Shown one piece after another: positions 3,804 to 62,717 of a stretch of DNA of 64,000 nt (the first letter of the stretch is position 1; each line of letters starts with the position of its first letter). The stretch is taken from positions 9,344,341 through 9,408,340 of the forward strand of contig NC_057753.1 in NCBI RefSeq assembly GCF_004010195.1, given 5' to 3'. This DNA comes from Chiloscyllium plagiosum. Lineage: Eukaryota. The notes beneath the pieces were generated by a model. That model was not told where the DNA came from. It was given only the letters and a program-made list of their open reading frames with translations, and did not search any database. The translations under genes and the position numbers were made by a program.

Positions 3804-4445
3804 TCAGTCCTGGGGGGTGACCGAAGGCAGCGCGTCACCGGTGGGATCTGATTGCTGGGAGCGTTGGTGCCCCTGCTGGTGCTTCCGCAAGTTGTAGGAA
3901 AGTATGAACCTCTTCCCACACTCGGCCGAGCTGAAGGGCCTTTCCCCGGTGTAGACACACTGGTGCTTCAGCAGGGCGGAGGAATTGCTGAAGGCCTTCC
4001 CGCACTCAGGGCAGCAGAATGGGCTCCTCCCCCCCTCCGCCACCGCCCTCCGCCCCAACCCCCGGGTGGATCAGCTGGTGCTTCAGCAGTGTGGAGGAGC
4101 GAGTAAAGCCCTTCCCACACTCGGGGCAGGAGAACGCTTCTCCCCAGTGTCGAGGGACTAGTGACTCAGCAGGGCTGATGAATTGCTGAAGGCCTTCCTG
4201 CACTTAGGGCAACTGAACGACATCTCCCCGATGTGGACCCACTAGTGGGCCAGCAGGTTGGAAGAAAGAGCAAAGCCCTCCCTGCACTCGGGGCAGAAGA
4301 ACGGCCACTCCTCAGTGTGGACCCACTGGTGTATCAGCAGGTGGGAAAAACTGGTGAAGGCCATCTCGCACTTGGGGCCGGCGAACGGCCTTCCCCGGTG
4401 TGGACCAACTGGTGCGTCAGCAGGGCAGAGGAATCACTGAAGGCT
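3804..4445 (-). pseudogene. C2H2 zinc-finger pseudogene (~6.5 fingers, 5' truncated)
   Basis: [18 protein letters not shown] repeats with in-frame stops, frameshifts and a GC-rich insertion; the 5' end abuts a Penelope fragment. Confidence 0.9.
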
Positions 4446-4760
4446 TAGAGGAAACCTACAACACCATCAACAATATCCTTACTGGCATAAAATTCACAAA
4501 ATAGGAGAACAACAACAAAGTGCCATTTCTAGATGTCACAGTAGAGCGAACAGTCAATGGTAAATTCAAAACAGCGTCTACAGGAAAACATCGCACGCGA
4601 ACCAAGCACTTAACGACAGAAGCAATCACCCCTACACATCCAAACTAACCTGAATCAGGACAGTATTTCAACGGGCCACTCCACACTGCAGCACCCAAGA
4701 ACGACGAAGATCAATAAATAACTGTACAGCGCATTTGAGGAGAACGGGCAACCTACAAAC
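4446..4760 (+). mobile_element. Penelope-like reverse transcriptase fragment
   Basis: Degenerate IKFT..PFLDVTVER..SVYRK..HP motif of PLE RT; same family as 25140-25860 and 25880-26165. Confidence 0.75.
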
Positions 4761-4774: not shown

Positions 4775-4846
4775 TTCCCTGACCCGGAATCGAACCCGGG
4801 CCGCGGCGGTGAAAGCGCCAAACCCTAACCACTAGACCACCAGGGA
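4775..4846 (-). tRNA. tRNA-Glu(TTC), near-intact
   Basis: TCCCTGGTGGTCTAGTGGTTAGGGTTTGGCGCTTTCACCGCCGCGGCCCGGGTTCGATTCCGGGTCAGGGAA; 72 nt, A and B boxes, T4 terminator just downstream; one G:G mismatch in the T-stem. Confidence 0.8.
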
Positions 4847-4927: not shown

Positions 4928-5552
4928 TTTCACCTGTGCATCCAACAATGTCATTTCTTGTATTCATTGCTCCCGATATGGTCCCCTCTACATTGGGGGG
5001 ACTGGAGACTCCTCGCAGAGTCAAGTCACAGCGCTTGAGGGAACATCTCCAGGACACCCGCAACAATCAACCCCATCGCCCTCTGGAACAACATTTCAAC
5101 CCCCCCTCCCACTCTGCCGAGGACATGCAGGTCCTGGGCCTCCTCCATCGCCGCTCTCTCCCCACCCGATGCCTGGAGGATGAACGCCTCATCTTCCGCC
5201 TCAGATAAATTCAACCCCAGGACATCAATGTGGACTTCACCAGTTTCCTCATTTCCCCTCCCCCACCTTACCTCAGTTCCAACCTTCCACCTCAGCGCTG
5301 TCCTCATGACCTGTCCTACCTGCCAATCTCCCTTCCCACCGATCCGCTCCACCCTCCTCTCTGATCTGTCACCTCCATCCCCACCCCCATTCACCTATTG
5401 TTCTCTTTGCTACTTTCGGCCCAGCAACCCCCAATTTATCTCTCTACCCTGGAGGCGTGCTGCCATTATTCCTGATGAAGGGCTTTTGCCCGAAACGTCG
5501 ATTTTCCTGCTTCTCGGAAGCTGTCTGACCTGCTGTGCTTTTCCAGCACCAA
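4928..5552 (+). mobile_element. Penelope-like element 3' part (GIY-YIG remnant + terminal repeat)
   Basis: CIHCSR..LYIG / EHL..TR..QHFN..SHS..DM.VLGL..RLIFRL motifs followed by a hammerhead-bearing terminus. Confidence 0.85.
5468..5501 (+). ncRNA. Minimal type-I hammerhead ribozyme motif
   Basis: CTGATGA (5472-5478), stem II GGGC/GCCC, GAAA (5492-5495), palindromic ACGT helix III, UC cleavage site, short helix I TC/GA. Confidence 0.65.
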
Positions 5553-6805: not shown

Positions 6806-7299
6806 AGAACCACACTGACAGCTTCATTTCCCAGGTCTCTCTGCCTGTGGAGCTGAGAAAGAGTGAATCATTGCAGAGTTTGTTTGAATCAATCACTTCA
6901 TAGGTTTCGAAAGGGTTAAATATCTTCAAATGGCGAGTCTGCGTGTTTCATCCCGAAAGATGAAATGGGCGTGCAGTTAAAAACAAAAACAAAAATTGCA
7001 GGAGCAACTCAGCAGGTCAGGCAGCATCTGTGGAAAGATAATCAGAGACAACATTTCAGAACTCTTTTTTTTCCTCATCCAGGTACAGCCAAACCTGCTG
7101 AGTTTCTCCAGCAGTTTGTCTTTCTGTCTCGGATTCTCAGCATCCGCAGTCCTTTACGTTAGAAATTAAGTCAATTCAGAAACCCCACTGAGCTTCCTCA
7201 GTGGAGAAGAATTCCGTTTGGGAAACATTTTCCTGACACCATTAAAAACGCGCACCTTCGCAGCCAAGAAAGCAGTCGGAGCGAGAACAGCAAACACTC

Positions 7300-7373
7300 T
7301 GGCCCTGGGTGGTCTTGAACCACCAACCTCTCAATTAACAGCCGAATGCGTTGACCAATTGCGCTACAGAGAC
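7300..7373 (-). pseudogene. tRNA-Asn(GTT), degenerate
   Basis: GTCTCTGTAGCGCAATTGGTCAACGCATTCGGCTGTTAATTGAGAGGTTGGTGGTTCAAGACCACCCAGGGCCA; many CpG-type transitions. Confidence 0.8.
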
Positions 7374-8934
7374 AGGTCCACGTGACGCCCGCACAGTGTC
7401 TTTGAGGAAGCTACTATTCAATTCATAATTCAACCTGCCCCGCCCAAAATTACTTGGCTTCTATCAGTTTTACCTTTCCATAATTATGCCTTGGACATTC
7501 ATTGTGGAGACATGGGAACAGTCTGATCCCAAAACTTGCAGGCACATCCATGTCACGAGGACCTAGTCTTCCTACACCGGGGCCATCGCCCTCCGAGCCT
7601 TTCAGTGTTTTGCCTCTTACCGAATTTTCTCATTGTCTCCGAGCTGAGAAGGGGTTTGAATTCCTGATGCGCAGAGCATTCTTTCAATATCTCAGATCAG
7701 TTCATGTCCCGAGAATATCAGAGTCAAACTCCCGGCCTCTTAAACAAGGGGACAATGTCTGGACTGTCTCTGCTCAGTCGGACAGTTCATCCTTCATTGT
7801 CCTCTAATTCCACTTCCCAAAGAGTTTCTAAAGATTCACAAAGCTGGAGACTGGAATTTCTCTTTTACTTCTGAACATTTTTCCACCTGCTAACTGACAA
7901 TATTTTGCCAAAACCTCTTCCCAATGGTAACACTTGTATCATGTCCAGCGAGGAGGAATTTCCATTTTGTGGAGACATTCCCAAATTTGGGAATGTTCTC
8001 TTTGGAGCAAAGAAGGTTAACTGGAGATTTCCAGGGGCTGTTGGCAATGATGGGAGAAGTGGTGGGAATGGGCAGGTTAATGATCAGAAGTACCTATTGC
8101 CTCTGTTTAGGGTCAGTTACCAGAGGACAGGGATTGAAGTTCTTTAATGGAAAGCAGCATTTGTGTAGAACAAACACAGCGAATACTGCAGAAAGCCGAC
8201 GGGTCGAGCTGCATCTGTGGAAAGGTAAACAGAGCCGACGTTTTGAGTGTGCTACGGTTTTTGTTCAGAACTCAGTGTTTTGCCTCTTCCCGAAGTTGGT
8301 CCAGGTCTGTGTCTCAATTGGCAAACACATGGCAAGTGCAGTGCCGTAATGTGAAGTTATAGCCTTTGCTGTTTAAAAAAAAGCAGTGCATTGTTTAAAT
8401 GGTGATATATTGGAATGTGGAGAAAGTGAGGACTCGAGGTGAAGATCGAAAAATGTGGCACTGGAAAAGCACATCAGGTCAGGCAGCATCTGTGGAGCAG
8501 GACAGTGAACGTTTCGGGCACAAGCCCTTCAACAGGAATGATGTATGGATGTACAAAGGGGTCTCAGAGTGCCTCTACACCAGTCAATGCCAGTTGTCGG
8601 GCAGATGCAGCATGCAATGAGCGAGGCAAGTGGTATATTACGAAGAGGAATTGAGTTCAGAAGTGGGGTCATTGAACATATTCAAGGCGAAGTTCACCTG
8701 AGTTTTGAACAACAAAGAAGTGGATGGTTGTGGGGGGAGGTAAGAAAATGGTTTTAAGACCAGTACAGGTCAGTCACAGAGTCAGACAGCACTGAACAGA
8801 CCCTTCATCCAACTAGTCCATGCTGAGTATGTTCTCAAACTAAACTCGTCCCACCTACCAGTGTTTGGCCCATAAACCTTCGAACCTTTCGTATTCATGC
8901 ACTTATCCAAATGTCTTTTAAACATCGGAGCTGT

Positions 8935-9675: not shown

Positions 9676-10544
9676 CCCCGCAACTCTCAACCCTTGATAC
9701 TCTATCTCAGTGATAAACATAGTCAGTGACCTGGCCTCCACAGCTTTCTGTGACAATGAATTCCATAGATTCACCACTCTCTGGCTTCAGAAATTTCTCC
9801 TAATCTCCATTCTCCCTTTATGCTGAGGCTATGCCCATGGGTATTAGTCTCTCCTCCCAATGAAAATATCTTCCCAATGTCCACTCTGTCCAGGCTGTTC
9901 AATATTCTGTACGTTTCAGTTAGATCCCCCTTGAATGTGGGTCTGTTAATCAGCATGAACCAAACCCTTCAGGATGAGGACAGCCGGGATTAGGTTCAAC
10001 AAAGTGATAATGGAGGGAGAGTGTGTGGGATGGAGATTTTCAGCTTTTAGGGAATAAGAGAGGAAAGAAAGTTTAATATAAATTATAATTGATCAGATGG
10101 GCCGATGGGTTCCCCGCAACTCTCAACCCTTGATACTCTATCTCAGTGATAAACATAGTCAGTGACCTGGCCTCCACAGCTTTCTGTGACAATGAATTCC
10201 ATAGATTCACCACTCTCTGGCTAAGAAATTTCTCCTAATCTCCATTCTCCTTTTATGCTGAGGCTATGCCCATGGGTATTAGTCTCTCCTCCCAATGAAA
10301 ATTTCTTCCCAATGTCCACTCTGTCCAGGCTGTTCAATATTCTGTACTTTTCAGTTAGATCCCCCTTGAATGTGGGTCTGTTAATCAGCATGAACCAAAC
10401 CCTTCAGGATGAGGACAGCAGGGATTAGGTTCAACAAAGTGAGAATGGAGGGAGAGTGTGTGGGATGGAGATTTTCAGCTTTCAGGGAATAAGAGAGGAA
10501 AGAAAGTTTAATATAAATTATAATTGATCAGATGGGCCGATGGG
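9676..10544. repeat. Direct tandem duplication, ~435-bp unit x2
   Basis: 'ccccgcaactctcaacc...gatgggccgatggg' repeated with few substitutions. Confidence 0.85.
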
Positions 10545-11819: not shown

Positions 11820-12452
11820 CACACTGAGCCCTCCAAAAACATAACACCCAGACACACCTCCCAACCACTCCACCATCACCACCCCATCAGGTCTTTTCTT
11901 CTGGTGGGTGAGACTAGGCTGCAAGATTAGTGGGGAGTAGATTTCGGACAGAGATGAGGAGGAGCTGCTTGTACCAGAGGGCGGTGAATCTACGGAATTC
12001 TGTGCTCAAGGAAGCAGTAGAGGCAGCTTCATTAAGACACTGTTGGATAGGTTTTTGCGTAGTAGGGGAAGTAAGGGTAGTTGGGGTAATGCAAGTAGGA
12101 GGAGCTGAGATGATTGATAGATCAGCCATGATTTTACACACTGAGCCCTCCAAAAACATAACACCCAGACACACCTCCCAACCACTCCACCATCACCACC
12201 CCATCAGGTCTTTTCTGCTGGTGGGTGAGACTCGGCTGCAAGATTAGTGGGGAGTAGATTTCGGACAGAGATGAGGAGGAGCTGCTTGTACCAGAGGGCG
12301 GTGAATCTACGGAATTCTGTGCTCAAGGAAGCAGTAGAGGCAGCTTCATTAAGACACTGTTGGATAGGTTTTTTCGTAGTAGGGGAAGTAAGGGTAGTTG
12401 GGATAATACAAGTAGGAGGAGCTGAGATGATTGATAGATCAGCCATGATTTT
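11820..12452. repeat. Direct tandem duplication, ~317-bp unit x2
   Basis: 'acactgagccctcc...atcagccatgatttta' repeated; duplicated ORF translations at 11930 and 12247. Confidence 0.9.
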
Positions 12453-14104
12453 AATGAATGGCGGAGCAGGTCGATGGGTCAAATGGTCTACTTCTTTTAT
12501 TACTTTGAAACTATAACCCTGCGTTTCCCCTGGCTAACCCACCTAACCTGCACATCCCTGGACACTGGGCAATTTAGCATGGCCAATCCAAATCAAGGCC
12601 AGTGAGAAATGTAGTGATGTGGAAACCAAACACCAGAGAATGATAGTAAGGGACAAGGAGAATAAATGTACTAACAATCAAAACTGGATTCTAACCATCA
12701 TAAAAAAATAAAACTAAAAGCTCAGTATGTGAATGTGTGCTGCATTGTAACAAAAGCGAATTAATTGACTGCACACGTTGAAGAGAATAATTGTGATCTG
12801 AGACTCCTGACAGAGATATGGCTTCAGAATGACAAGGATTGGATCCGGAAGATCGAGGGGATACGTGGCATTCAAGTCGAGTGGGAAGCTCAGTAAAGGT
12901 GGCCACTGCTAATCAAAGCACTGATAACATGGTAGTCTGGTGTCAGCTCGGATTTCAGGTCCTGATTTCTCTGTCCTCTGATCTCCCTGTTCCCACAGAG
13001 CTAGATGTTGTCTGTCCTCAGCTCTGCTTTATTTCTGTTGAAGCTTTGACCCCCTTTTACATCTTCTGGAGCAATGTAATATTCTGAGCCTCCTGGAAAT
13101 GACACCTTAGCTATACACCTTCTGATTGTTAAAACCTGTATATGGTTATCTCTCAATCTGCTAGGCTCCGTTGGAAAAATAGCCCAGCTTCTTCTTAACT
13201 CAAACCCTCCATTACCAGCAACATTCTGGTAAAGTCTGGAATATCGAATTGTATCAAATCACATCAATGTACTGTCTGAAACAATCTGGCTGTGTTCTTG
13301 CCTGAGATATTGAGAGTCCCTGGTGTAAGTAATTACGAATGCAATAATTTTGGTCCCAGAATTGGACAATCATTTTGCAACAAAGGGGTCTACTCTGATA
13401 AGGAGATAGTTGTAATTTCTAGAGTAAGTGAACAGTTTGTAGATTACGGAGATGAAGTTCCAGACACTTGGGAACGGCAAGAAATGACTGCGATAAATAA
13501 GACAAAGAACTGTGGATGCTGGAAATCTGAAACAAAAACTGAGAACACTGGAAAAACTCAGCAGGACTGGAAGCATCTGTGCAGAGGAAGCAGCGTTAGC
13601 GTTTCGAGTCCAACAACTCCTCTTCAGGATTCTGAAATAGTTTGTGAGAACTCGTTAAGTCATTTGCCCAGCTTTAAGACCATAATACACAGGAGCAGGA
13701 TGAGGCCATTTGGCCCATCGAGTCTGCTCCACCAGTCGATCATGGCTGATATGTTTCTCCATCTCATTCTGCTGCCCTCTCCTCATAACCCTTGACCCCT
13801 TACTAATCAAGAACCTATCTCTGTCTTAAATGCCCTCAATGACTCGGCATCCTCAACCCTTCTCCGAGTGGAAACATCATCTCCATATCCACATTATCCA
13901 GTCTTAGAGTAGCACAGCGCTGCCTGACCCACTCTGATCTCCAGCATTTGTTGTTTTCAGGAAGAATTCCTACAACAATGCGCTTCTAAATTTTGTACCC
14001 AGTTGGTTAGCTCTCCCTGATTCCCGTGAGATTTAACCTTACTCAACAATCCACTATGTGGTACAATTAACAAAGTTCCCACTCCCCACCTATTTTGTAC
14101 GCTT

Positions 14105-14430
14105 AGGTAGCACGATGGATCAGTGGTGAGCACTGCTGCTTCACAGCACCAAGCACCCGCGTTCGATTCCAACTTTGGGGCGACTGTATGTGATGAGTTT
14201 GCACGTTCTCCCTGGCGTGTCTGCGTGGGTTTCCTCCGGGTGCTCTGGTTTTCTCCCAAACTTTAAAAATATTCTGGTGAATTGGCCGAACTAAACGAGC
14301 CCACAGTGTGCAGGTCAGGAGTAAATGTAGAATAAAGGTATAGGGCAATTCGTCTGGATGGGTTACACTTTGGACAGGCGGTGTGGACCTGTTGGGCTGA
14401 ATGGCGTGTTTCCACATTTTCGGAATTCTA
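14105..14430 (+). mobile_element. HE1-like SINE
   Basis: 'cagtggtgagcactgctgcttcacagc', 'gagtttgcacgttctccc', HER1 tail. Confidence 0.75.
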
Positions 14431-14687
14431 CGTGGCATTCCCCCATTTCCAGAGTCTCAGAACTCTTGGCTTTTCCCATGGACAATTTGGGGGAGGGAAA
14501 CAATGTTTCGGTGAGTGTGAAGCTAAAAGTAAACGCAGTGCAGTACTTTAACTGTTTACCCCGGTATACCAGAAGCTCAGGGGTGACCTTACAGACGTTT
14601 ATAGAATCATGAGAGGCATGGGTAGGGTAAATAGACAAGGTCATTCCCTGGGATGGGAGAAGTCCAGAACAGGAGGGGAGTATTTTT

Positions 14688-14715
14688 NNNNNNNNNNNNN
14701 NNNNNNNNNNNNNNN
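14688..14715. other. Assembly gap (28 N)
   Basis: N run. Confidence 0.99.
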
Positions 14716-15629
14716 ATTTCTCTGTCCTCTGATCTCCCTGTTCCCACAGAGCTAGATGTTGTCTGTCCTCAGCTCTGCTTTATTTCTGTTGAAGCTTTGA
14801 CCCCCTTTTACATCTTCTGGAGCAATGTAATATTCTGAGCCTCCTGGAAATGACACCTTAGCTATACACCTTCTGATTGTTAATACCTGTATATGGTTAT
14901 CTCTCAATCTGCTAGGCTCCGTTGGAAACATATCCCAGCTTCTTCTTAACTCAAACCCTCCATTACCAGCAACATTCTGGTAAAGTCTGGAATATGGAAT
15001 TGTATCAAATCACATCAATGTACTGTCTGAAACAATCTGGCTGTGTTCTTGCCTGAGATATTGAGAGTCCCTGGTGTAAGTAACTGTTTACCCCGGTATA
15101 TCAGAAGCTCAGGGGTGACCTTACAGACGTTTATAGAATCATGAGAGGCATGGGTATGGTAAATAGACAAGGTCATTCCCTGGGATGAGAGAAGTCCAGA
15201 ACAGGAGGGAAGTATTTTTGGGGTGAGGGAGGCAAGTGTAAGGAATGATCTGCCGGAGGAAGTAGTGGATGGAGGTCCAATTGTAACATTTAAAAGGCAT
15301 CTGCATGGGTGTATGAATCGGAAGAGTTCAGAGGGATATGGGCCAAGTGCTGGTAATAGAGACGAGATTAATTTAGACTATCTGGTCGCCACGGATGAGT
15401 TAGACCGAAGGACCGGTTTTTGTGCTGTGTATCTCTATGACTCTGGGTTGCCCGTAATGTTTGCCATACCTGTATGTTCAGTTTCTGTCTGGTGTCGGCG
15501 CCAATGCCTTGATATCTCATTTCCTCCAACTCCTCACTTCCACCTCCCCAGATGTTAACCATTTCGTGTCTGGTTGTTTCTCAAGAGGCTGCATTGAAGG
15601 TTCATCCTGAATTGACACTTTTGATTTTG

Positions 15630-24289: not shown

Positions 24290-24933
24290 GTGAGGACTGG
24301 AGATGCTGGAAGCCAGAGTTTAGATCAGAGTGGTGCTGGAAAAGCACAACAGGTCATGCAGCTTCCGAGGAGCAGGAAAATCGACGTTTCGGGCAAAAGC
24401 CCTTCATCAGGAATAGAGGGAGGACGCCTCCAGAGTGGAGAGATAAATTCGGGGTGGGGGGTGTGCTGGGGCGAAGGTAGCAAAGAGTAAAATAGGTGAA
24501 TGGTGGTGGGGATGGAGGCGACAGGTCAGAGAGGAGGGTTTACTGGATAGGTGGGAAGGGAGATTGGCAAGTAGGACAGGTCATGAGGTCAGTGCTGAGC
24601 TAGAAGGTTGGAACTGAGGTAAGGTGGGGGGAGGGGAAATGAGGAAACTGGTGAAGTCCACATTGATGCCCTGGGGTTGATGTGTTCCGAGGTGGAAGAT
24701 GAGGTGTTCTTCCTTCAGGCGTCTGGTGGGGAGGGAGTGGCGGTGAAGGATCCCCACGACCGACATGTCCTCGGCAGAGTGGGAGGTGGGGTTGAAATGT
24801 TGGGGCATAGGGCGATGGGGTTGATTGGTGCGGGTGTCCAGGAGATGTGACTTGACTCTCCAGTCTCCCCAATGTTGTAGAGATCGCATCGGGAGCAATA
24901 GATACAAAAAAATTACATTGGTGGATGTACAGG
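24290..24933 (-). mobile_element. Penelope-like element 3' part with hammerhead terminus
   Basis: Paralog of 4928-5552. Confidence 0.85.
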
Positions 24934-25010: not shown

Positions 25011-25082
25011 TCCCTGGTTGTGTAGTGGTTAAGATTCGGCGCTCTCATTGCCGCGGCCCGGCTTCGATTCCCGGTCAGGGAA
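25011..25082 (+). tRNA. tRNA-Glu(CTC), probably pseudogene
   Basis: TCCCTGGTTGTGTAGTGGTTAAGATTCGGCGCTCTCATTGCCGCGGCCCGGCTTCGATTCCCGGTCAGGGAA; G53>C in the B box and D-stem changes. Confidence 0.75.
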
Positions 25083-26165: not shown

Positions 26166-26395
26166 AATTGATGCTTCCAAGCTGACTCTCACAAATTCGG
26201 TTTGACCTTCCATTCTTTCCTATTTTATTTTGTTGGTTTTGAAAACTTTCCCAATCCTCTGAGTGAGTGTTGGAGTTGGGAAGTTATGTTGTGGCTGTAC
26301 AGGACATTAGAATATTGTGTAATACTGTTGGAATATTGTGTGCAATTCTGGTCTCCCTCCTATCAGAAGGATATTGTGAAATTTGAAAGGGTTCT

Positions 26396-26893
26396 GAAGC
26401 ACCAATGGGTCCACAGAGGGGAGAGGCCCTTCTGCTGCCCTGAGTGCGGGAAGGCCTTTAGTGATTCCTCTGCCCTGCTGACGCACCAGTTGGTCGACAC
26501 TGGGGAGAAGCCGTTCTTCTGCCCCGAGTGCAGGAAGGGATTTGCTCTTTCCTCTGACCCGCTGGCCCACTGGTGGGTCCACATGGGGGAGAGGTCGATC
26601 AGTTGCCCTACGTGAAGGAAGGCTTTCAGCAATTCCTCAGACCTGCTGAGCCACAAATCCGTCCACACTGGGGAGAAGCCATTTTCCTGCCCCGAGTGCG
26701 GGAAGGGCTTTACTCGCTCCTCCGCCCTGCTGAAGCACCAGTGTGTCCACAGCGGGGAGAGGCCCTTCAGCAGGCCCGAGTGTGTGAAGAGGTTCATGTT
26801 TTCCTGCAACTTGTGGAAGCACCAGCGGGGGCACCAACGCTCCCAGCAATCAGATCCCACCGGTGTTCTGCCTTGGGTCACCCCATGGACTGA
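26396..26893 (+). pseudogene. C2H2 zinc-finger pseudogene (~5.5 fingers)
   Basis: Paralog of 3804-4445; Cys>stop, frameshift, 5' end replaced by CR1. Confidence 0.9.
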
Positions 26894-30220: not shown

Positions 30221-30793
30221 CGATTCTTAGGATGATTTTTCACACCTGAGTGCAACATAAATACAGATCATTGATTTCAGCTTTGGTGGAACAAAAAACA
30301 GCAAATTGGTGGATAATTACAGTTAGTGCAAACAAAGCTAGGGATCGATAAAGATTAACTCAGTTCACTTCAATGGCCAAATTACATTTTGAAAACCAAG
30401 TACACTCAGACGACATGTGAAAGTGGTTCATAGGAGGAGAAATGGGGCATTGAAGAGGAGTGAAATGATTGCTTTTGGTCACCGCCACCTTTTAAGAATC
30501 CTTTCAACCTGTTTTTCGGACAATGGTGGCGGTGACCAAAAGCAATCATTTCACTCCTCTTCAATGCCCCATTTCTCCTCCTATGCACCACTTTGACATG
30601 TTGTCTGAGTGTACTTGGTTTTCAAAATGTCATTTGGCCATTGAAGTGAACAGGGTTAATCTTTATCGATCACTAGCTTTGTTTGCACTAACTGTAATTA
30701 TCCACCAATTTGCTGTTTTTTGTTCCACCAAAGCTGGAAACAATGATCTGTATTTATGTTGCACTCAGGTGTGAAAAATCATCCTAAGAATCG
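30221..30793. repeat. Long inverted repeat (foldback), 269-bp arms, 35-nt loop
   Basis: 30221-30489 is the reverse complement of 30525-30793; about 9 mismatches counted by eye, no indels. Confidence 0.95.
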
Positions 30794-42676: not shown

Positions 42677-43594
42677 ACTTCATTGTAATGTCTTCTGCTC
42701 TGAGTAAGGGCAAAACATCTTTGAAAGCTGCTCTGAAACTCCAGTTTTCACAACCACAATTCTGCTTTCACTTAAGTCGATTGAAGTCATATAGCACTGA
42801 AACAGACCCTTTGGCCCAACTCGTCCATGTCAACCAGATATCATAAATTCATCTAGTCCCATTTGCCAACATTTGACTCGTATCCCTCTAAACCTTTCCT
42901 ATTCAAATACCCATCCAGATGGCTTTTAAATGTTGTCATTGTACCAGTCTCCACCTCTTCCTCTGGCAGTTTGGTCCACACATACACTACCCTTTGCGTG
43001 AAAAATCTTTGTTCAAAAATCAGATGAACTCAGCCTTCAATATATTCAATGACCCCCTAACTGCAGGAAGACATCACCACTTCTGAACTCAATTCCTCTT
43101 GCTCATATACCACTTGCCTTGCTGATTGCTTGCTGCACCTGTCTGACAACTGGCAGCGACTGAGGCTCCTTTGTCCATCCACACATTATTCCTGATAAAG
43201 GGCTCATGCCCGAAACATCGACTCTCCTGCTCCTTGGAAGCTGCCTGACCTAATGTGCTTTCCCGGTGCCACACTTACTCTGATCTCCAGCATCTGCAGT
43301 TCTCACTTTCGCCACATCCCGAATACATCACCATTTAAACAATACACCTGCTTTCTGCTTTTTATTAGCAAAGGCTGTAACTTCATATTGTGGTACTGCA
43401 TTTGCCATGTGTATGCCAACTGCGGTCTTCTCTACATCAGGGAGACTGAGCGTAAGCTTGGGGAACAGTTCGCCAAGCATCGCAGCCGGGTCACCATCCA
43501 TTTTAATTCCCCTTCCCACTCCCTTTCTGACATGACCATCTTAGGCCTCCTCCATTGCCACAATGAACCAAACCGCAAATTGGAGGAACAACAC

Positions 43595-45190: not shown

Positions 45191-45304
45191 AGACTTACAT
45201 AAGATTAATTTATAAGACTAATCAGCAATCTAGTTTTGACCAATACACCGTATCAGTTGCATGACACTATGATCTTTTGCTATAAATTCTGTGTCTTATG
45301 ATCC

Positions 45305-46035
45305 TGCTCCACAGCTACTTGATGAAGGAGCAGCTCTTCAAAAACTAGTGCTTCCAAATAAACCTGTTGGACTTTAACCTAGTGTTGTGTGATTTTTAAC
45401 TTTATCCAACCCAGTCCAACACCGGCTCCTCCACATCATTTCTAGTGAACACAGCCCAGACTTCTTGGTGCTGCCAGTAAACGTTACAATGGCATGATGC
45501 AGTGCCTACACTCTTGAAAGATTTACCATTTCTAACGATACCAGCTACTCATTCACTGCTCCTTCTGATACGCGACATTGGAAACTTAGTGCAGGAGGCT
45601 GAAGGAAATGAGCAGCTTTAAAACAAAAACCTCTTGGAGCTCAAAGCTTTCAATGAGAGTCTGAGCCCCTGCTCCGCAGCTACTTGATGAAGGAGCAGCG
45701 CTTCAAAAGCTAGTGCTTCCAAATAAACCTGTTGGACTTTCACCTGGTGTTGTGTGATTTTTAACTTTATCCAACCCAGTCCAATACCGGCTCCTCCACA
45801 TCATTTCTAGTGAACACAGCCCAGACTTCTTGGTGCTGCCAGTAAACGTTACAACGGCATGATGCAGTGCCTACACTCTTGAAAGATTTACCATTTCTAA
45901 CGATACTAGCTACTCATTCACTGCCCCTTCTGATACATGACATTGGAAACTTAGTGCAGGAGGCTGAAAGAAATGAGCAGCTTTAAAACAAAAACCTCTT
46001 GGAGCTCAAAGCTTTCAATGAGAGCCTGAGCCCAG
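45305..46035. repeat. Direct tandem duplication, ~365-bp unit x2, each starting with a degenerate hammerhead-type Penelope end
   Basis: 'cagctacttgatgaaggagcagc...gctttcaatgagag' repeated. Confidence 0.85.
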
Positions 46036-46718
46036 CTGTAAGTTCAAGTAACCTTTATTGTGACCCAACTTTGTTACAGCTTCAGATCCCCCCCCCCCCC
46101 CAGGAAAAAGGCGTACAAAAAGTAGCTTTTTTAAAAACAGCTCAAGGTCAAAGCGCACACACTCCACTACGTACTCCCCCCACCTTTCCTTAATATTGCT
46201 CACCACCGAGTTGTCCCTTTGTAATTGGATCTTTGGTACAGCCTCAACCCATAGGAAGTATTTCCTCACAGCAATTTTAACCCATATCCTGTATCCAAGT
46301 AAGTTCCTCCCTGCTCATTTGCCAGGATGGGGCAGTGTAGAGTCAACCACATTACTTTGGGTCTGGAGTCACGTGTAGGCCAGATGGGTAAAGGATGCAG
46401 CTGGGACAACTAAGTGAATCCTTTCCCACAACAATAGTGTCCTTCCCTAAAAATGATGTAAGTGAATCAGATGGGGGTTTCTCCAGGCACATACCCCTGA
46501 AAATTGTTTCATCGTTAGATTCGGAACTCCAGATTTCTAACTGAATTCTGATTCTGCCATCTGCAGCGACGGGATTTGAACCCGGGAATCCCCGGAACTC
46601 AGTTAACAGTGCAGACGATAATTACACTCAGCTGTCGCTCCTTCAATCACCCTGCGACAGCATGTGAACTCGCTGGTGCCTCCGCAGGTGGGAGGAGCGG
46701 GTGAAGCCCTTCCTGCAC

Positions 46719-47438
46719 TCAGGGCAAGGGCGTCTCCCTGGTGTGGACCTGCTGGTGCCTCTGCAAGTTGCCCACCTGAATGAATTCCTTCCCACACTCA
46801 GGGCAGCTGAAGGGCCTCTCCGCCTCGTGGACCCACTCGTGCTTCAGCAGGTCAGAGGAAGTGCTGAAGGCCTTCCCGCACTTGGGGCAGGTGAATGGCC
46901 TCTCCCCCGTGTGGACCCGCAGGTGGGTCTGGAGGTTGGAGGAATCACTGAAGGCCTTCCCACACTCTGGGCAGCTGAATGGCCTCTCCCCCGTGTGGAC
47001 CCGCCGGTGGGTCTGGAGGTTGGAAGAATAGCTGAAGGCCTTCCCGCACTCGGGGCAGCTGAAGGGTCTCTCCCCCGTGTGGACCCGCCGGTGCCTCAGC
47101 AGAGAGGAGGAATTGCTGAAGGCTTTCCGACATACAGGGCAGCTGAAGGGCTTCTCCCCTGTGTGGACCCGCCGGTGGGTCAGCAAGTGGGAGGTATTGC
47201 TGAAGGCCTTTCCGCACTCAGGGCAGCTGCAGGGCCTCTCCCCCGTGTGGACCCGCTGGTGCCTCAGCAGGTCGGAGTAATGGCTGAAGGCTTTCCTGCA
47301 CTCACTGCAGGGGAACGGCCTCTCCCCAGTGTGACTGCGCCGATGCGTCTCCAGGGCAGATGGGAAACGGAAACCTTTCCCGCAGTCATCACACTTCCAT
47401 CGTTTGTCCAATGGGCAGGATTCCTCGGGTTTTTCCAT
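46719..47438 (-). CDS. KRAB-less C2H2 zinc-finger protein (XlCGF/gastrula-type), 239 aa, 8 tandem fingers
   Basis: [23 protein letters not shown]... open frame with TGERPF linkers; ATG at 47438; acceptor TTTTTACAG| at 47804/47803; 9th finger out of frame at 46643-46725. Confidence 0.85.
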
Positions 47439-50400
47439 AGCCAAAGCTCCTACCGCACACAAACATGTGTGGAGCCTCTCCCCACCGTGAATTCCTCTAT
47501 CTAGGCCGTTTAATTGTTTCAGGCTCCACACAATGTGCTGCAACAGTAGGGTCTCTCATCCAGTCCTAGTGATGCTGAAAACATACTCCCAACAGGAACC
47601 AAAAAGCTTCTCACAAAATCACAGTCAAAAATCATTGCAGTCCTGATGGATTGAATGAATGTCAGGCGTTGATGTCAAAGTGAGGACTGCAGACACTGGA
47701 GAGTCAATAAGTGTGGCGCTGGAAAAGCACAGCAGATCAGGCAGTCAACGCTTCAGGCATAAGCCCTTCATTGCTCATTTTGAATATTGTATCTTCAGAT
47801 GCTCTGTAAAAAGAGATTACAAAAGTCATCACTGTCAGTCCAGGGTAGAAATTCAGAACAAGCAATTCTACTTTCTGCAGAACATTCTTTTCTTTTGTTT
47901 TTCCACAAAAAGCTCCATCCCACTATCTCACTCTCTCCCCTTCTGTTCTCACTCCACTCTAACTAATTCTCCTGAAGGTACTGATCCAGGATCTTCCAGA
48001 AAAGCAAAAACATCAAGACTGACATCTCTCTGAATTTTGGATAACTCCACTTGAAAATTAATATCTTTCATGACATTGGGATACTGCTGAGACTGAGCAG
48101 GTCTAATTTTGGGAAGCAAAAAAAAAATGAGTTTGCCAAAATCCCTTCCCTTCAGAGAACCCCCATGAGTTCTCACTGGCCCTGCGAAGGGTAACCCACC
48201 CACACCCATTCCTCCCCCCCTTCCCAGTTGCTCTACATTTACCCCTGACTCATGCACCTAACCTGCACATCTCTGGGCACTATAGCTAATTTAGCATGGC
48301 CAATCCACCCTAACTTGGACAAAGTTAAAAATCACACAACACCAGGTTAGAGTCCAATAGGATTTTTTGGAAGGACTAGCATTTGGAGCGCTGCTCCTTC
48401 AGCAGGTGGTTGTGGAGAATAAGATCATAAGACACAGAATTTATGGAAAATCATTACAGTGATCTGCCACTGAAATTATATATTGAACAAACCTGAATTG
48501 TTAAGTCTTTCACTTTTTAGAATGGGTTGTAGATATCATTACTATGCAAATCCCATAACTTCTTGTGTGTCACCTTCTCGAGAGCACTTAAGGTTTTATA
48601 GCAAAAGGTGACGAAATAGTACATGGATCGACTGTACATTTTTTTGAGCATAATACCATTCTGCAAGTTCAAATTCACCCCCATGGACGTGTGTATGTGC
48701 ATGATAGAGAAAAAAAGTCTATTTCTGTGCTGTATATTTCTATGTCTGCTTGATAACAGATGCCTTATTTCTGTGGGTGTCAATATTGTTGTAAATCACA
48801 GCTGGGTACAAATAGTTAGATGTAAGGGAGACAAAATTCCTCAAGTCGGGCACCAGAAGAATCCTGAGAGCGCCCTATTTCTGGTTTACTTCCTCATGAA
48901 CAAAACATTAAGCATGATCACCTATTTATTCCTAATTTTGTTTCATTTTTCTTGTTTTATTCCCTGCTATGACTACACTCTGTGTCTGGATGGTTGACAG
49001 GCTGGGAGATTGTGGGTTGGGTCTTGATTGACTGAATGTTCTACTGTTCCAAAAGGTGTAAAAGAGGGGGCAAAGCTTGAGCAGAAATCTAGCAGAGCTG
49101 AGAACAGATAGACATCCAGATGCCTTTAAATGTTGTAATTGTACCAGTCTCCACACTTCCTCTGGCAGTTCGTTCCATACATGCAACACCCTCTGTGTGA
49201 AAAGGTTGCCCCTCAGGTCCCTTTTAAATTATTGCCCTCTTACCTCAAACATATGCCTTCTAGTTTTGGGCTCCTCTACCCTGGGGAAAACATCTTGGGT
49301 ATTCACCCTATTCATGCCTCTGACAAACATCTGTGAGATCACCCCTCAGCCTCTGATGCTCCAGGGAAAATATCCCTGGCCTATTCAGCCTTTCCCAATA
49401 GTTCAAACTCTCCAAATCTGGCAAAAGCCTTGTAAATCTTTTCTGACGCCATTCAAAGTTTCACAACATCTTTCCTGTAGCAGGGAGACCAGAACAGAAT
49501 GCAGTATTCCAAAAGTGGCCTAACCAATGTCCTGTACAGCCACAACATGACCTCCCAACTTCTTTACTCAATGCTGTGATACAAAATGCCTTCTTCACTA
49601 TCCTGTCTACCTGAGACTCCACTTTCAAGGAAATATGAACCTGCACTCCACAGTCTCTTTGTTCTACAACACTCCCCTTAACTGTGTCAGTCCTGCCTGG
49701 ATTGACTCACATTTCTCTAAATTAAACGACATCTGCCAATCCATGACCCATCGATCAATTATAATTCATAGTGAACTCTTTTTCCTCTCTTATTCCCTCG
49801 AAGCTGAAAATCTCCATCCCACACACACTCCCTCCATTCTCACTTTACTAAACCTAATCCCTGCTGCACCTCATCCTGAAGAGCCTGGTTCATGCTGATT
49901 AACAGGCCTACACTCAGGGGAGATCTAATTGAAACATAAAGAATACTGAATGGCATGGACAGAGTGGATGTTGGAAAGATGTTTCCATTGGGAGGACAGA
50001 CTAGGACCTGAGGGCATAGCTTTAGAGTAAAGGGAAGATCTTTGAGAATGGAGAGAAGAAGAAACTCCTTCAGCCAGAGAGCAGTGAATCTATGGAATTC
50101 TTTGCCACAGAAGGCTGTGGAGGCCAGGTCACTGAGGATATTTAAGACTGAAATAGATCGGTTCTTGAGTATCAAGGGGACTGAGGGTTACGGGGAGAAA
50201 GTGGGAGAATGGGGTTGAGAAACCCATCAGTCATGGTTGAATGATATGCGCAGACCTAATGGGCTAAGTGGCCTAATTTCTGCCCCTATGTCTTATGGTC
50301 TATTGCTGTCCTGGACACAGTGAGAGAATTGGGAGCAGTTGTCGGCCATTTGGTCTTTGAAGCCTGCACCAGCATTGAACAGATCATAACTGGATATGAA

Positions 50401-52733: not shown

Positions 52734-52830
52734 TTAGATTAGAGTGGAGCTGGAAAAGCACAGCAGTTCAGGCAGCATCCGAGGAGCAGTAAAATCGACG
52801 TTTCGGGCAAAAGCACTTCATCAGGAATAC
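52734..52830 (-). mobile_element. Penelope terminal repeat with hammerhead motif
   Basis: ATTC-CTGATGA-AGTGCTTTTGCCC-GAAA-CGTCGA. Confidence 0.7.
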
Positions 52831-54974: not shown

Positions 54975-54988
54975 TTGTCAATTCCTCC

Positions 54989-55434
54989 CACATGGGGGAG
55001 AAGCCGTTCACCTGCCCTGAGTGCAGAAAGGGCTTTACCCTAGCCTCTGCCCTGCTGAGGCACAAGAAGGTCCACACAGGAGACAGGCCCTTCAGCTGCC
55101 CCAAGTGTAGGAAGAGCTTTACCTGGGCTTCCAACCTACTGACCCATCAGCGGGTCCATGCAGGGGAGAGGCCCTTCCCCTGAACCAAGTGCAAGAAGGC
55201 CTTCAGCCATTCCTCAGACAGGCTGAAACAGAAGCGGGTCCACACTGGGGAGAGGGCCTTCAGTTGCCCCGAGTGCAGGAAGGCTTTCAGCGATTCCTCC
55301 AACCTGCTGAGACACCAGTGGGTTCACACCAGGGAGAGACCGTTTATCTGCTCTCACTGTGGGAAGGGCTTCACCTGCTCTTCCCAACTGCGGAGGCACC
55401 AGCGAGTTCACGTGCCATCGCAGGGGGGGGTTGA
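54989..55434 (+). pseudogene. C2H2 zinc-finger gene 3' part (5 fingers visible), premature stop
   Basis: Cys>TGA at 55181-55183 in finger 3; C-terminus HVPSQG resembles the out-of-frame end of the 46.7-kb gene; 5' end lies in the gap. Confidence 0.8.
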
Positions 55435-55994
55435 AGGAATGATGACTAAGTGCTATTATTGACTGGACTATCAACCCAGTTCCGCGGACTCCCAGGTTCA
55501 AATCCTGCGGCAGCAGATGGTGGAATTAGAATTCAGTCAGAAATCTGGAGTTCAGAATCTAATGATAAAGCCATTTTAATGGGGGGCTGGAGAAAACTCC
55601 CATCTGATTCACTTACATCCATTTTAGGGAAGGAAACTGCCGTTGTGGGAAAGGATTCACTCAGTCGTCCCAGCTGCATCCTTTACCCGGTCTGGCCTTT
55701 GCGTGATTCCAGACCCACAGCAGTGGCACAGGTTTTCTGTGAGATCTGAGGGCAACTTTTCCATGCAGAGTATGGTGCATATATGGAATAAGCTGCCAGA
55801 TGAAGTGGTGAACGCTTGTACAATTGCAACATTTAATAGGCATCTGGATAGGTTTATGAATAGGAAGGGTTTGGAGGGATGTGGGCCAGGTGCTGGTAGG
55901 TGGGACTAGATTGGGTTGGGATATCTGCTCGGTGTGGACAAGTTTGAGTGAAGGGTCTGTTTCTGAGCTGTACATCTATGACTCTGTCTATTTG

Positions 55995-56690: not shown

Positions 56691-58421
56691 GCCCTTCCTT
56701 GTTTTAGCAAAATGCAACCCCTGGCTTTTATCCACACCTCTCTTATGCACATGCGCTCTCTCAGACACACACACATTCCTAATACTTACCCTCGCACAGA
56801 CTGATACTCCATGATACTCACTTCACCAAGCAAGCATGCATGCAAAAATGCTCTTATGCGCATTCTCACGCACAAACTCACATGGAGACACCTGTGCTGC
56901 CCTGCATAGTTTGCAGAAATCTCTTCCCTTCAGAGAATCCCCAGTGTGGAAGCAGGTCACTCGACCCAACTAGTCCACCGACCCTGCAGAGGGTAACTCT
57001 CCTTACCCCTATTTCTCTATATTCACCCCTGACTAATGCACCTAACCTGGACATGCCTGGGCACTATGGGTAATTGAGCTTGGCCAATCCACTCTAACCT
57101 GGACAAAGTTAAAAATCACATACCAAGTTATTTGGAAGCACTGGCTTTCGACATGCTGCTCTTTCATCAGGTGGTTGTGGAGAATAAAATCATAAGGCAC
57201 AGAACTTATGGAAAAACATTAGTGTCCTGCCACTGAAATGATATATTGAACAAACCTGGATTGTTAAGTCTTTCATCTTTTCAAATGGGTTGCAGGCATC
57301 ATTAATATGTAAATCTCCAACTTCCTGCAAGGCACCTTCTTGACATAACTTAAGATTTTGTAACAAAAGATGACATCTCAGCTCAGACAATGCATTAAAT
57401 GTGTGAGGTGAGAGTCTGTCAGTATCCAAACCTTGAATCGAACTGGTTCTATTTCCAAAGTCGAATTTACAAAATATTATTGACTGCCTGCAAATTGTGC
57501 ACTTTTGAGCAAAATAGAATGTATCTGCAAATAAAAATTCACCCCATGGACTAGTGTATGTGCACGCGCATGAGAGAAAGGCTACTTCCATGCTGTACGT
57601 GTCTATCTCTGTCTGATAACAGATGCTTTACTTCTGGGGTAAGTATTGTAAATCATAGCTGGGTACTAATAGTTAGATGTAATGGAGAGTTCTTCAAGTT
57701 GGGCACAATCAGAATCCCGGGAGACCCCTGTTTCTGGTTTGCTTCCTAATGAACAGACATTAAGCATGAGCACATATTTATTTCTCATGTTGTTATTTCA
57801 TTTTTCTTGTTTGATTCTCTGCTATGACTGCAATCTTGTCTGGTTGGTTGGGAGACTGGAGATTGTGCATTGGGCTTTGATTGACTGAATATTTTATTGT
57901 GCCAGAAGGTGTAACGGTGTTGGGGGGGGGGTCAGTCAGTCAAAGCTTCAGCAGAAATCCAGTAGAGCGGAGAACAGACTGACATCTTATGCTGTAGGAA
58001 CAGGGAGATCAGAGGACAAGGAAATGAGGACCTGAAATCAGAGCAGACGCCAGACTATCCTGTGGTCAGTGCTTTGATTAGCAGCGCCAACCCTTTACCT
58101 AGCTTCCCACTTGACTACCCCCTCAATATTCAGGATCCAAGCCTTGTCATCCCGAAGCCATGTCTCTGTAAGGAGTCTCAGATCATAATTCATCTCTTCA
58201 GTGTGAGCAGTCAACTGTGTATGCATATGTGCTACTTTTGTTACACAGTGTAGCACATATGCATACACAATTGTTTTTTTCCATTTTTGTGATCTTTAGA
58301 ATTCAGTTTTGCTTGCTGGTACATTTACTCTCCTTGTTCCTTTCTATCATTCTCTGATGCTCATTTTCCACATCACTGCATTGCTCACCTGCCTTGATTT
58401 GGATTGGCCTGGCTAAATTAC

Positions 58422-58513
58422 CCTGAAGAAGGGCTTATGCCCGAAACGTCGATTCTCCTGTTCCCTGGATGCTGCCTGACCTGCTGCGCTTTTCCAGCAA
58501 CACATTTTCAGCT
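58422..58513 (+). mobile_element. 92-bp hammerhead-headed mini-element with TSD
   Basis: TSD CTAAATTAC at 58413-58421 and 58514-58522; empty site in the paralog near 12570. Confidence 0.85.
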
Positions 58514-61071
58514 CTAAATTACCCATGTCTAGGGATGTGCAGGTTAGGTGGGTTAACTATGGGAAATGCAGGGTTATAGTTTCATAGTAATAGAAGCAGG
58601 GGTAGGCCTTATGGCCCGTCCAGCCTGCTCCGCCATTCATAAGACCATAGCTGAACTATCCATCATCTCAGCTCCTCCTCCCTGCATTATCCCAACTACC
58701 CTTAAGTAATCTACCATGCAAAAACCCAACCAACTGTGTCTTCAACATACTTAATGAAGTGGCCTCTACTGCTTCCTTGGGCAGAGAATTCCATAGATTG
58801 GCTACTTTCCAGGAAAAGTAGTTCCTCCTCATCTCTGTCCGAAATCTTCTCCCCCAAATTATGTGGCCTAGTCTAATCCACCAACAGAAATGACTGGATA
58901 GGGTAGGGCTTCATCCCTACAGTGCAATGAATTCCCACTTTCCACCAAAGTCCCAGATGTACTCACTCACTCATTTGCTGTCTCACAAAAGAAAGATTTC
59001 ATTGTAACTACTTCTCCTCCCAGTAAGGGCAAGACATCTTTGAAAGTCCAGTCTTCACAACCACACTTCTGCTTTCACTGAAGACTATTAGAATCGTACA
59101 GCACAAAAACAGACCCTTTGGCCCAACTTGTCCTTACCAGGCAAACATCCTGAATTAATCTATTCCCATTTGGCCCATGTCCCTTTCAAACCTTCCAATG
59201 TGTGTACCCACCCACATGCCTTTTAAACGTTGTAATTGTACCAGCCTCCACCACTCCCTCTGGCAACTCATTCCATACATGCACCACCCTCTGCGTGAAA
59301 AAATTGCCCCTTAGATCCCTATTAAATCATTCCTCTCTCACCTCAAACATATGCCCCTTCATTTTGGACTCCAGCATCCTGGGCAAATGACCTTGGGTAT
59401 TCACTGTATTCATACCCCTTGTAAACTTCTGTAAGGTTACCTCAGCCTCCAATGCTTTAGGGAAAATATCCATGGCCCAATCAACCTCTTCCTGTAGTTC
59501 AAACCCTCCACCTCTGGCAACAGCTTTGTAAATCTCATCCGACCCCTTTCAAAGTTTCACAAGTTCTTTCCAATATCAGGGAGACCAGAACTGAACGCAG
59601 TATTTCAAAAATGCCCTAACCAATGTACAGCACAACAAGACCTCGCAACTCCTTTACTCAATGCTCTGACCAATAAAGGAAAGATTACCAAACGCTTTCT
59701 TCACTATCCTATCTACCCACAACTCCACTTTCAAGGAACTATGAACCTGCACTCCAAGTTCCCTTGCTTCTGCAACACTCCCCTTAGCTATGTCAGTCTT
59801 GCCTGGATTGCTTGACCAAAACGCTACACCTCACATTTCTATAAATTAAACTCCATCTTCCACTCTTCAGCCCATTGCCTGTCCCATAAATACTAATTTA
59901 CAGCAAACTCTCATTCCTCTTATTCCTGAGAAGCTGAACGTTTCCATCCCACACACTCCCCCTCAGTTTTCACTTTTCTGAACCTAATCCCTGCTGTACC
60001 TCATCCTGAAGCGGCAAAATACTGACCGGCCTGGACAGAGCGGACGTTGGGAAGATGTTTCCATTGGTAGGAGAGACAAGGACATGAGGGCACTGCCTTA
60101 GAGTAAAAGGGAAAACCTTTTAGAATGAAGATAAGGAGAAACTCCTTTAGCCAGAGAGCGGTGAACTTATGGAATTCATGGTCATAGAAGGCTGTGGAGG
60201 CCAGGACACTGAGGATATTTAAGAGATAGATAGGTTCTTGAGTATCAACAGAATTGGGGGTTATGGGGAGCAAGTGGAAAAATGGGATTGAGAAACTTAT
60301 CAGCCACGATTATGTGGTACGAGCAGACCTGGCGGGCTGAATGGCTGCTTCTATGTCTGATTGTCTCTTGCTGTCCTGGACACACAGGGCGAGAATTGGC
60401 AGGAGTAGGCCATCTGATCTTTCGAGTCTGGACCAGCATTGAACCAATCATTACTGATGACCCCTTAACTGCAAGAAGACATCCCATTTCTGAACTCAAT
60501 TCCTCTTGCTAATACACCACTTGTCTTGCTGATTGCTTCCTGCATCTGTCTGACAATTGGCATTGACTGGTGTAGAAGGACACTGAGCCCCCTTTCTACA
60601 TCCACACATCATTCCTGATGAAGGGCTCGTGCCGGAAACATCAACTCTCCTGCTCCTTGGATGTTGCCTGACCTGTTGTCCTTTTCCAGTGCCACACTTT
60701 GATTCTGATCTCCAAAATCTGCAGTCCTCACTTTCTTCACATCTGCTTATATATCACCATTTAAACAATGCACATTCCTTCTGCTTTTTTCCACAGCAAA
60801 AGCTATAACTTCACATTATGGTACTGTATTTGCCACGTGTTTGCCAATTGTGGTCTTCTCGACATCATGGAAACTGAGTGTAAACTTAGGGAACAATTCG
60901 CCGAGCATCGCAGCCGAGTCTGCAGAGGCTGACTGGAGCTCCCCATCACCATCCATTTTAATTCCCCTTCCCACTCTCTTTCTGACCTGACCATCTTTGG
61001 CCTCCTCCATTGCCACAACGAACCAAACTACAAATTGGAGGAACAACACCTCATCTTTGGCCTAGACAGTC

Positions 61072-61163
61072 ATTCCTGAAGAAAGGCTTATGCCCGAAAC
61101 GTCGATTCTCCTGTTCCTTGGATGCTGCCGGACCTGCTGCGCTTTTCCAGCAACACATTTTCA
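61072..61163 (+). mobile_element. 92-bp hammerhead-headed mini-element with TSD
   Basis: TSD GCCTAGACAGTC at 61060-61071 and 61164-61175. Confidence 0.85.
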
Positions 61164-62717
61164 GCCTAGACAGTCTACAGCCTGGAGGACTCAACATTGA
61201 GTTCTCCAATTTCAAATAACCTGCCTTTCCATCCCTTGATTCCCTTCCCAGCTCCCCCCTCCCTTCCACACCTCCTTGCAACCAAACAGATTCCTTTCTC
61301 CCATTGACCAACCAGGTTGTACCCTCTACCTGTCTTCACCTATCCCCATTTTACCACCGTGCCCCTAGCACACCCTTGATCTGCAGCTCCCCCTACACCC
61401 ACGTCCAGTCTTGAGCAGAGATTACACACGAAATGTTGACTTCTCCACCTCCTGTTGATGCTTGGCTTGCTGCATTCTTCCAGCCTCCTGCCTCTATTTT
61501 GCCAATTGAGATAGACCTGGACCAACTTTTCCCAAGGCTGTCCCCTCCCTGGACTCACTCTCTTTCCTTTCAGGTGCTGCAAGTCAACAATTGAACCACA
61601 GAATGAGAAAATAAACGGAAAAGGGGGTGTGAAATAAAAGGGTGTCATACTCAGATGTTGGACAGAGGAAGGAAGTTGCAGTCTGGAGTGAAGTTCAATC
61701 TTCATTCAGAGAGAGGAGCAAGAGCAGCAGCAGCTTCGGAAGCTCATGGTCCACCTTCTGCATTCAGATAATAGGTGAGCTCTGTTTGGCAGGAGGACAA
61801 TTCTCCTTCCAGTCCTCCAGTGCTCCCTGTTGGTCCATTAAAAGAAGGTCTTGCACCTTTTCTGCCTACAGCAAGGAACATGGCCAATGTTAAGGTTATA
61901 CCAGTGAACATGCACCCTGCTTGCTGACACCAAGGAGTCTACACAATATGCTCTGTGGCAATGTTGATATTATTGACAGATTCCAAGTGTCCAAATGCCA
62001 GTGAGAAAAAAAGGGTAGAGCCTTTTTTATCCCCACGTGGCTTGACATTTTATTGCTTTTGCATTTTGTCTGGCTGCTCAACTTTTTATGTCTTTTCCCC
62101 AGTGTAGGAATGAAGTTCAGAACTAGAGGGCATAGGGTGAGAGTGGCAAGATATAAAAGTGGCAACTTTTCCATGTAGAAGGTGGTGCGTGTATCGAATG
62201 AGTTGCCAGAGGAAGTGGTGGAGGCTGGTACAATTACAGAATTTAAAAGGCATCTGGATGGGTATATGAATAGGAAGGGTTTAGTGGGATATGAACCAAG
62301 TGCTGGCAATTGGGATTAGATTAATTTGGATATCTGTTCGGCTTGGATGGGGAGGATGAAAAGGTCTGTTTCCATGCCGTACGTCTGCAACTCTAAATAA
62401 TAGAGTACACTTTCACAAATAACAAACTATATCCATGTTAACAAGGATTAGTACACCATGTACTTTACTAACCATCCTCAATAGGTCCTGCCCCTTCGAT
62501 GACTGAACAACATATGCTGGTGCATAATCTCCTTCACACACACTAGGCTGAACAATTGCACTAGTAACTGCAACAATAAACAGCATAAGGATAAAAAGAA
62601 AGCGAGGGTAAAAATCACAAGCGCCAGTAAAAGCAGATGGAAAGTGAGTGTAAAATGTCACTATGACAGGACAGGCCCCACATTCCTTCCCCTCCGTCCC
62701 CCCACAACCTGCCTCAC

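Follow-up and report, generated by a model that had tools for sequence, protein, structure and literature searches.

The window analysed here, a stretch of 64,000 nucleotides from the shark Chiloscyllium plagiosum (NC_057753.1, positions 9,344,341 to 9,408,340), carries on its forward strand a 92-nt insert at 58422-58513, which corresponds to positions +1 to +92 of the pseudo-LTR end, and of the mRNA leader, of a Penelope element that we assign to the Neptune type (see below). On this scale +1 is the first C of CCTGAAGA, at window position 58422, and the preceding ATT occupies -3 to -1. The insert is flanked on both sides by CTAAATTAC (58413-58421 and 58514-58522), a target-site duplication of 9 bp, or of 11 bp if the shared CC at 58422-58423 is counted; the length is ambiguous because the CC at the 5' junction matches the element as well as the target. 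The right junction lies at the inner of the two 3' end sites described below. A paralogous segment on the reverse strand (12208-13050) contains the empty site at ~12567-12577: the flanks 57939-58423 and 58514-58894 align to 13050-12567 and 12577-12208, respectively, and the site is present there once. Since the paralog is 77-79% identical on both sides and has a single copy of the site, 58422-58513 is a true insertion, and both the 9-11 bp duplication and the empty site near 12570, as given in a preliminary description of this DNA, stand. It is a real insertion of a known class of element, and not the undescribed system for which it had been considered a candidate. The copy lacks the ATT at -3 to -1, has microhomology at both junctions and carries no extra G at its 5' junction. 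The target (58388-58412 and 58523-58560) is a short fragment resembling what we take to be the central domain of a shark V-SINE.

Within the insert, a scan with a descriptor taken from PMC4209133 places a minimal type I hammerhead core on the forward strand at 58423-58450, with a predicted cut after 58450 (+29). It is composed of CUGAAGA, a bulged A, a 4-bp helix II, GAAA and the palindromic ACGU, and matches the descriptor in the core, the bulge after A9, helix II, the palindromic helix III and the NUH triplet. Helix I is weak, with 3 of 4 pairs, and is clipped in the copy at 58422-58513. An Rfam scan of the window gave no hammerhead match at E<=1, and the fold stability of six stretches is ordinary (z -0.85 to +0.86 against shuffles). 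A terminal pairing of the two ends of the unit was considered and dropped, its energy being no better than that of shuffles and both ends being variable. Other minimal-hammerhead families, with a different helix II (12 and 5 loci in G000), lack the CTCATT context.

BLAST within the window gave 16 matches, of which 3 belong to the subfamily of the insert and the others are diverged relatives. The second stub (61060-61175, forward strand) is, as described before, a unit of 92 nt; the insert at 61072-61163 starts at ATT, three bases earlier than the copy at 58422, is bounded by a 12-bp duplication (61060-61071 and 61164-61175) and sits inside the GIY-YIG end of a different Penelope copy. The third copy, on the reverse strand at 1013-891, also starts at ATT. 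It had been listed as a near-identical unit at ~920-1013, but is not one of 92 nt: it is 94.6% identical, extends ~27 nt further into the tail, belongs to the outer 3' end class and shows no duplication at its ends. The suggested youth of the subfamily agrees with the 94.6-96.7% identity among its copies in the window. A pseudo-LTR end of a sister Penelope subfamily, with the upstream 3' UTR present, lies on the reverse strand at 24330-24414 (85-87% identical), and the more diverged relatives found by window BLAST are at 5468-5551, 52749-52828, 8450-8541, 60609-60700 and 43188-43264. The window further contains arrays of 84-bp repeats in both orientations, in duplicated segments (3860-4460, 26327-26880, 46657-47470 and 54988-55455), which resemble C2H2 zinc-finger exons. 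There are three tRNA genes or pseudogenes, two of them in an inverted duplication (tRNA-Glu(TTC) 4775-4846, tRNA-Asn(GTT) 7299-7374 and tRNA-Glu(CTC) 25011-25082), and a fold-back at 30221-30793 with 272-nt arms, 96% complementary, a 29-nt loop and a sub-threshold mir-577 score. Tandem 300-bp pairs of 96-99% identity (9789-10523, 11820-12436, 12965-15015 and 45303-45967), some beside N gaps, are possibly assembly artefacts.

Genome-wide, a 34-mer of the 5' part of the unit has 27,910 exact matches and a 32-mer of the 3' part has 78,054. In two copies (L095 and L083) the 92 nt of the insert stand behind more than 500 nt encoding a GIY-YIG end, and longer copies (L237 and L236) contain Penelope RT motifs together with, in L236, a CX4CXXC linker. 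The Pfam match to GIY-YIG is weak (E 1.8e-4; 22.1 bits, just under the cut-off of 22.6); relatives of the parent ORF carry RVT_1 and GIY-YIG, and among named proteins those of sharks and rays come closest. A CX2-5CxxC linker before the endonuclease is a mark of Neptune elements (PMC8557442). Judged from its sequence, the parent is an EN+ Penelope-like element of the Neptune type, an assignment made from the linker. The Penelope origin of the insert and its mobilisation by Penelope RT/GIY-YIG, both proposed before, fit its place as the pseudo-LTR end of a GIY-YIG-encoding parent.

The arrangement of this parent can be read from partial tandems. In the sister subfamily (L292 and L294) the endonuclease end is followed by the 3' UTR, the hammerhead, the tail and the ORF, and leader-to-ORF partial tandems of the insert's own family occur at L302, L310 and L323. 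With a gapped pattern 881 places were found where the tail continues, and most of the 30 loci read enter the ORF start; an earlier pattern, ending in CAAAGATA, had fixed a wrong last base and gave no common continuation among the 100 of 204 matches listed. The ORF ATG lies at +164/165 in 6 of 6 copies checked. The order in the partial tandem is GIY-YIG end, 3' UTR, an initiator-like CTCATT, hammerhead, inner 3' site at ~+92, tail to ~+127 and ATG at ~+164, and therefore the unit is the 3' end of the element as well as the front of its leader. An upstream walk from the RT motifs in the gapped assembly yielded only truncated or gapped copies, and none that was intact and full-length. One copy like the stub, with a 13-bp duplication, is inserted into an ORF of its own element family (L271, oriented 1336-1459).

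The ends of the copies were mapped in an unbiased set formed by the first 100 exact matches of the 3' anchor on contig C1, from which all end statistics derive. The 3' ends (n=100) form two groups ~35 nt apart, 56 at +86 to +98 and 43 at +121 to +140, with 1 at +108. These two groups are the known 30-40 bp Penelope tail, the two ends of which correspond to two RT start sites seen in vitro (PMC11167929). After removal of 7 copies that end at assembly gaps, 93 were scorable for the 5' end: 21 reach upstream of -40, 2 end at -40 to -6, 39 at -5 to +1, 19 at +2 to +12, 6 at +13 to +28, 1 at +29 to +31 and 5 beyond. With these 39 ends, the recurrence of the 5' end at the front edge of the hammerhead, first noted in the window, holds in the larger sample. 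Duplications of 7-17 bp were found in 50 of the 93 copies. Solo units with both ends like those of 58422-58513 number 9; what had been called a discrete 92-nt insert is thus a real insertion, but not a discrete unit.

An inverted arm is present in 51 of the 93 copies, and a direct upstream copy in 1, which is a long partial tandem. Where insertions are inverted, one arm is short and the other tailed in 46 of 49 arms scored, a count in which pairs are partly double-counted. At seven inverted loci (L015, L025, L133, L144, L359, L382 and L402) the tailed arm stops at ~+93 to +97, where the other arm begins, and such non-overlapping arms resemble those of twin priming on a single RNA; in the majority of the other inverted pairs the arms overlap, for which two RNAs or strand displacement would be needed. 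At L041, L086, L089, L125 and L126 the 5' junction carries the first 6-10 bases of the element in short repeats, which suggests that the cDNA end annealed more than once.

The CTCATT around the A at -3 conforms to the initiator consensus BBCA+1BW (PMC5287114); in the sister subfamily the sequence is TTTATT, without the C of BBCABW. Among matches that stop at this A, the letter before it is a G in 3,561 of 5,508 cases genome-wide (64.7%), against a background of 28.7%; the patterns behind the 3,561 and the 5,508 also require a non-C letter 11 bases further up. As a control, ends at -2 have G in 18 among 100 listed (hand count). When 100 listed junctions at -3 were parsed, 60 proved to be inverted, 19 solo with a duplication and 21 solo without a resolvable one. 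Fillers of a single letter number 5 in solo junctions, all of them a G that is absent from both target and element (L105, L118, L128, L363 and L383), and 6 in inverted junctions, 3 G and 3 T. Over all fillers of 1-12 nt, the last letter is G in 29 of 43, as compared to 23 of 88 non-C inner letters (p 9e-6). In the solo G junctions with a duplication, the G falls inside target microhomology in 7 of 13, which fits an origin from the cap or from the target. An untemplated G before the A would be as expected for a copied mRNA cap, and at full-length L1 insertions the cap leaves its mark as an additional G (PMC11702581). At two loci (L316 and L329) G-ATT is fused to DNA from the ORF start, which must thus have been part of the template; this points to a jump from the RNA 5' end back into ORF-bearing mRNA. 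A splice acceptor at -3 was rejected, since the sequence there is CTC in the long copies and the G is preceded by various letters. The RNA alignments (X19 and the contig runs; X20 gave 0 reads) have no start peak, with reads mostly from scattered genomic copies, and among the matches listed there was no RNA record carrying the stretch. A fixed, G-marked 5' boundary was not found in print, in a search that had most subscription papers, and Fig. S2 of PMC11167929 (genomic ends), which may bear on novelty, outside its scope; the text of the PMC11167929 supplement has no matching words.

According to the preliminary description, the unit would be an independent retrozyme-like mini-element, non-autonomous but self-propagating, that has an RNA of its own. 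Its very high copy number (the 78,054 matches of the 32-mer), the larger number of short than of long forms and the existence of non-autonomous Penelope derivatives (PMC8557442; bioRxiv 10.64898/2026.07.22.740005) speak for this view. In a clade test with 57 hotspot and 29 long copies (86 rows, 90 columns), drawn from 132 copies partly chosen for an intact 5' part, the short/long label required 18 changes as compared to 20.9 after shuffling, 3 identical haplotypes were common to both groups, and at this low resolution no site over the 90 columns was diagnostic for hotspot versus long copies at p<0.2. Lengths in the 132-copy set run from -526 to +55, with short copies intermingled with long ones, which is the outcome that had been named in advance as counting against a separate family. 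The 92-base unit is, by these sequence comparisons, no family of its own: unlike a SINE it has variable ends and no lineage with diagnostic variants, at least in a low-resolution tree of 90 columns in which a minor self-copying lineage may be hidden. Two features of a retrozyme are missing as well. Instead of head-to-tail arrays with a hammerhead in each unit there is, among the 93 copies, the single long partial tandem, and the tandems read include ORF-start DNA; instead of a monomer between ribozyme cut sites there are 5' ends at -5 to +1, away from the cut at +29/+30. The RNA alignments have no start or end peaks of a monomer, in poly(A) libraries and contigs that are blind to small circles. 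With the two 3' ends and the frequent inverted arms added to the clade test and to the array and cut-site results, we regard a self-propagating mini-element as very improbable.

What the copies show is the layout, the 5' peak, the excess of G, the two classes of 3' end and the combination of short and tailed arms. The insert is the initial 92 bases of a Neptune-type element's leader, the part that bears the hammerhead, and as to its origin we think it quite probable that RT started inside this leader and ran off the capped mRNA end. Pol II would start at the A at -3, and one mRNA would carry the leader region twice. The RT/GIY-YIG protein would cut the target with a stagger of 7-17 nt and prime at +92 or +127. 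Priming in the 3' copy of the leader region would give long inserts with random 5' truncation, and priming in the cap-proximal copy would give run-off products of 92-97 or 126-131 nt, like strong-stop DNA. In retroviruses, minus-strand strong-stop DNA is formed when RT runs to the capped 5' end. The enzyme would often copy the cap, which gives the extra G, and joining by microhomology would often trim 1-5 bases; for the copy at 58422-58513, the inner site would have been used and 3-5 bases lost. Priming from both cut ends, with each end using a different one of the two sites, would yield a head-to-head insert. The stubs are probably dead on arrival, and it is likely that thousands of look-alike stubs were copied from the capped front end of the element's mRNA. 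That Penelope elements regularly make such cap-proximal strong-stop DNA, and that the stub either integrates or jumps elsewhere on the RNA, we hold to be only somewhat better supported than its opposite.

Several observations do not favour cap run-off. The RNA alignments have no place where many molecules begin, the copy at 58422-58513 itself has no extra G, and the inverted single-letter fillers are T in 3 of 6. The G may come from target microhomology in the 7 of 13 solo G junctions mentioned above, and 21 of the 40 solo junctions have no resolvable duplication. Even without a cap, a C could be added by an RT wherever an RNA ends blunt, and the sister subfamily misses the C of BBCABW. Furthermore, the end statistics all come from contig C1, in a gapped assembly from which no intact full-length copy was recovered.

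The boundary might instead be set at the DNA level, by an endonuclease that re-cuts its own pseudo-LTR at ATT or by targets ending in (G)ATT that capture the cDNA by microhomology. The anole Penelope enzyme does prefer 5'-ATT-3' (PMC11167929), and microhomology extends into ATT in 9 of 19 solo junctions with a duplication. Yet the GATT at +30 to +33, which RT would meet first, is no hotspot (1 of 93 ends at +29 to +31), and neither the G absent from target and element at L105, L118, L128, L363 and L383 nor the identical boundary in arm-to-arm junctions is explained, which makes this origin unlikely. We give slightly less weight still to a cut of the RNA at -3, whether by a host nuclease or by the ribozyme in a different register, followed by addition of an untemplated C at the blunt end. 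The boundary does coincide with the first base of hammerhead helix I, and in D. virilis an intron end maps to the 5' end of helix I (PMC4209133). The descriptor, however, puts the cut 32 nt further downstream, at +29/+30; neither helix I nor helix III could form around a cut at -4/-3, and in the long copies the A follows CTC rather than AG, at a site that fits an initiator. With 5' ends starting at the hammerhead cut site in 1 of the 93 scorable copies, and with a 3' end that is a known Penelope RT start site (PMC11167929), the earlier idea that the fold of the ribozyme sets the ends is not supported, and the predicted ribozyme is probably a passenger rather than the setter of the stub ends. 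A search for U6 joined at the cut site in this subfamily gave 13 matches and no U6 chimera among them; the 6 that were scanned with Rfam had no match. Least probable of all is ordinary 5' truncation by stalling of RT at a stable hairpin, the alternative offered at the outset. Truncation at the 5' side is the rule in Penelope elements (PMC8557442), and 19 of 93 ends do lie at +2 to +12, but the fold energy is no better than that of shuffles, the stretch in which a stall would leave the ends (+21 to +33, the 3' foot of helix I or helix II) has few of them, the ends heaping at the far 5' side, and the G is left unexplained.

If cap run-off is indeed the origin of the stubs, tens of thousands of shark insertions would form a fossil map of the start of Penelope transcription, and the same insertions would record two-ended priming at the tail sites together with template jumps that are able to rebuild the pseudo-LTR. 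How Penelope elements insert, and how the pseudo-LTR and inverted ends are regenerated, is an open question (PMC2377424; PMC11167929). The stubs provide predictions at the level of single bases, for the start site, for cap copying and for the two priming sites, of which each cut strand would use one, and they would explain why minimal hammerheads in such genomes are mostly solitary, with no need for a new ribozyme-driven element. The likely cap run-off origin is a modest, testable addition. The class of element was already described, and so were its minimal hammerhead, its tail and its inverted arm.

The shark element shares with EN+ Neptune-clade elements (PMC8557442) and with Pen2a_Av of Adineta (PMC3846280) an RT with C-terminal GIY-YIG, a pseudo-LTR partial tandem, an inverted 5' arm, a 30-40 bp tail at one end only and a long target duplication. 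Truncation is described as variable in those systems, whereas the 5' ends in the shark heap at one initiator-like base with an extra G. The minimal hammerheads of metazoan Penelope pseudo-LTRs (PMC4209133) are alike in the core, in the bulged base after A9 and in the palindromic 15.2-16.2, and they also are mostly single motifs scattered through the genome. They differ in that the single motifs were called probably truncated elements, with ends that the available account does not map, and in helix I, which has 3 of 4 pairs here. Metazoan non-LTR retrozymes (PMC7229834; bioRxiv 10.64898/2026.07.22.740005) are likewise non-coding, Penelope-related and equipped with a type I hammerhead, but are described as head-to-tail arrays that are cut at each ribozyme and form circles, whereas the shark unit occurs dispersed or in head-to-head arrangement, and its start precedes the cut site by 32 nt. 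In the anole Poseidon element PAc (PMC11167929), the tail is likewise flanked by two RT start sites, which lie ~110-130 nt downstream from the hammerhead; both strands of the DNA are extended, and hammerhead cleavage is not needed. The PAc ORF starts in hammerhead stem II, while the shark ATG is at +164, after the tail, and the available parts of that report describe neither cap run-off products nor a start site for PAc. Full-length L1 insertions are alike in that RT reaches the capped 5' end and copies the cap (PMC11702581). In contrast to L1 and to retroviral strong-stop DNA, the run-off product in the shark would be only ~95 or 130 nt long and would itself be integrated.
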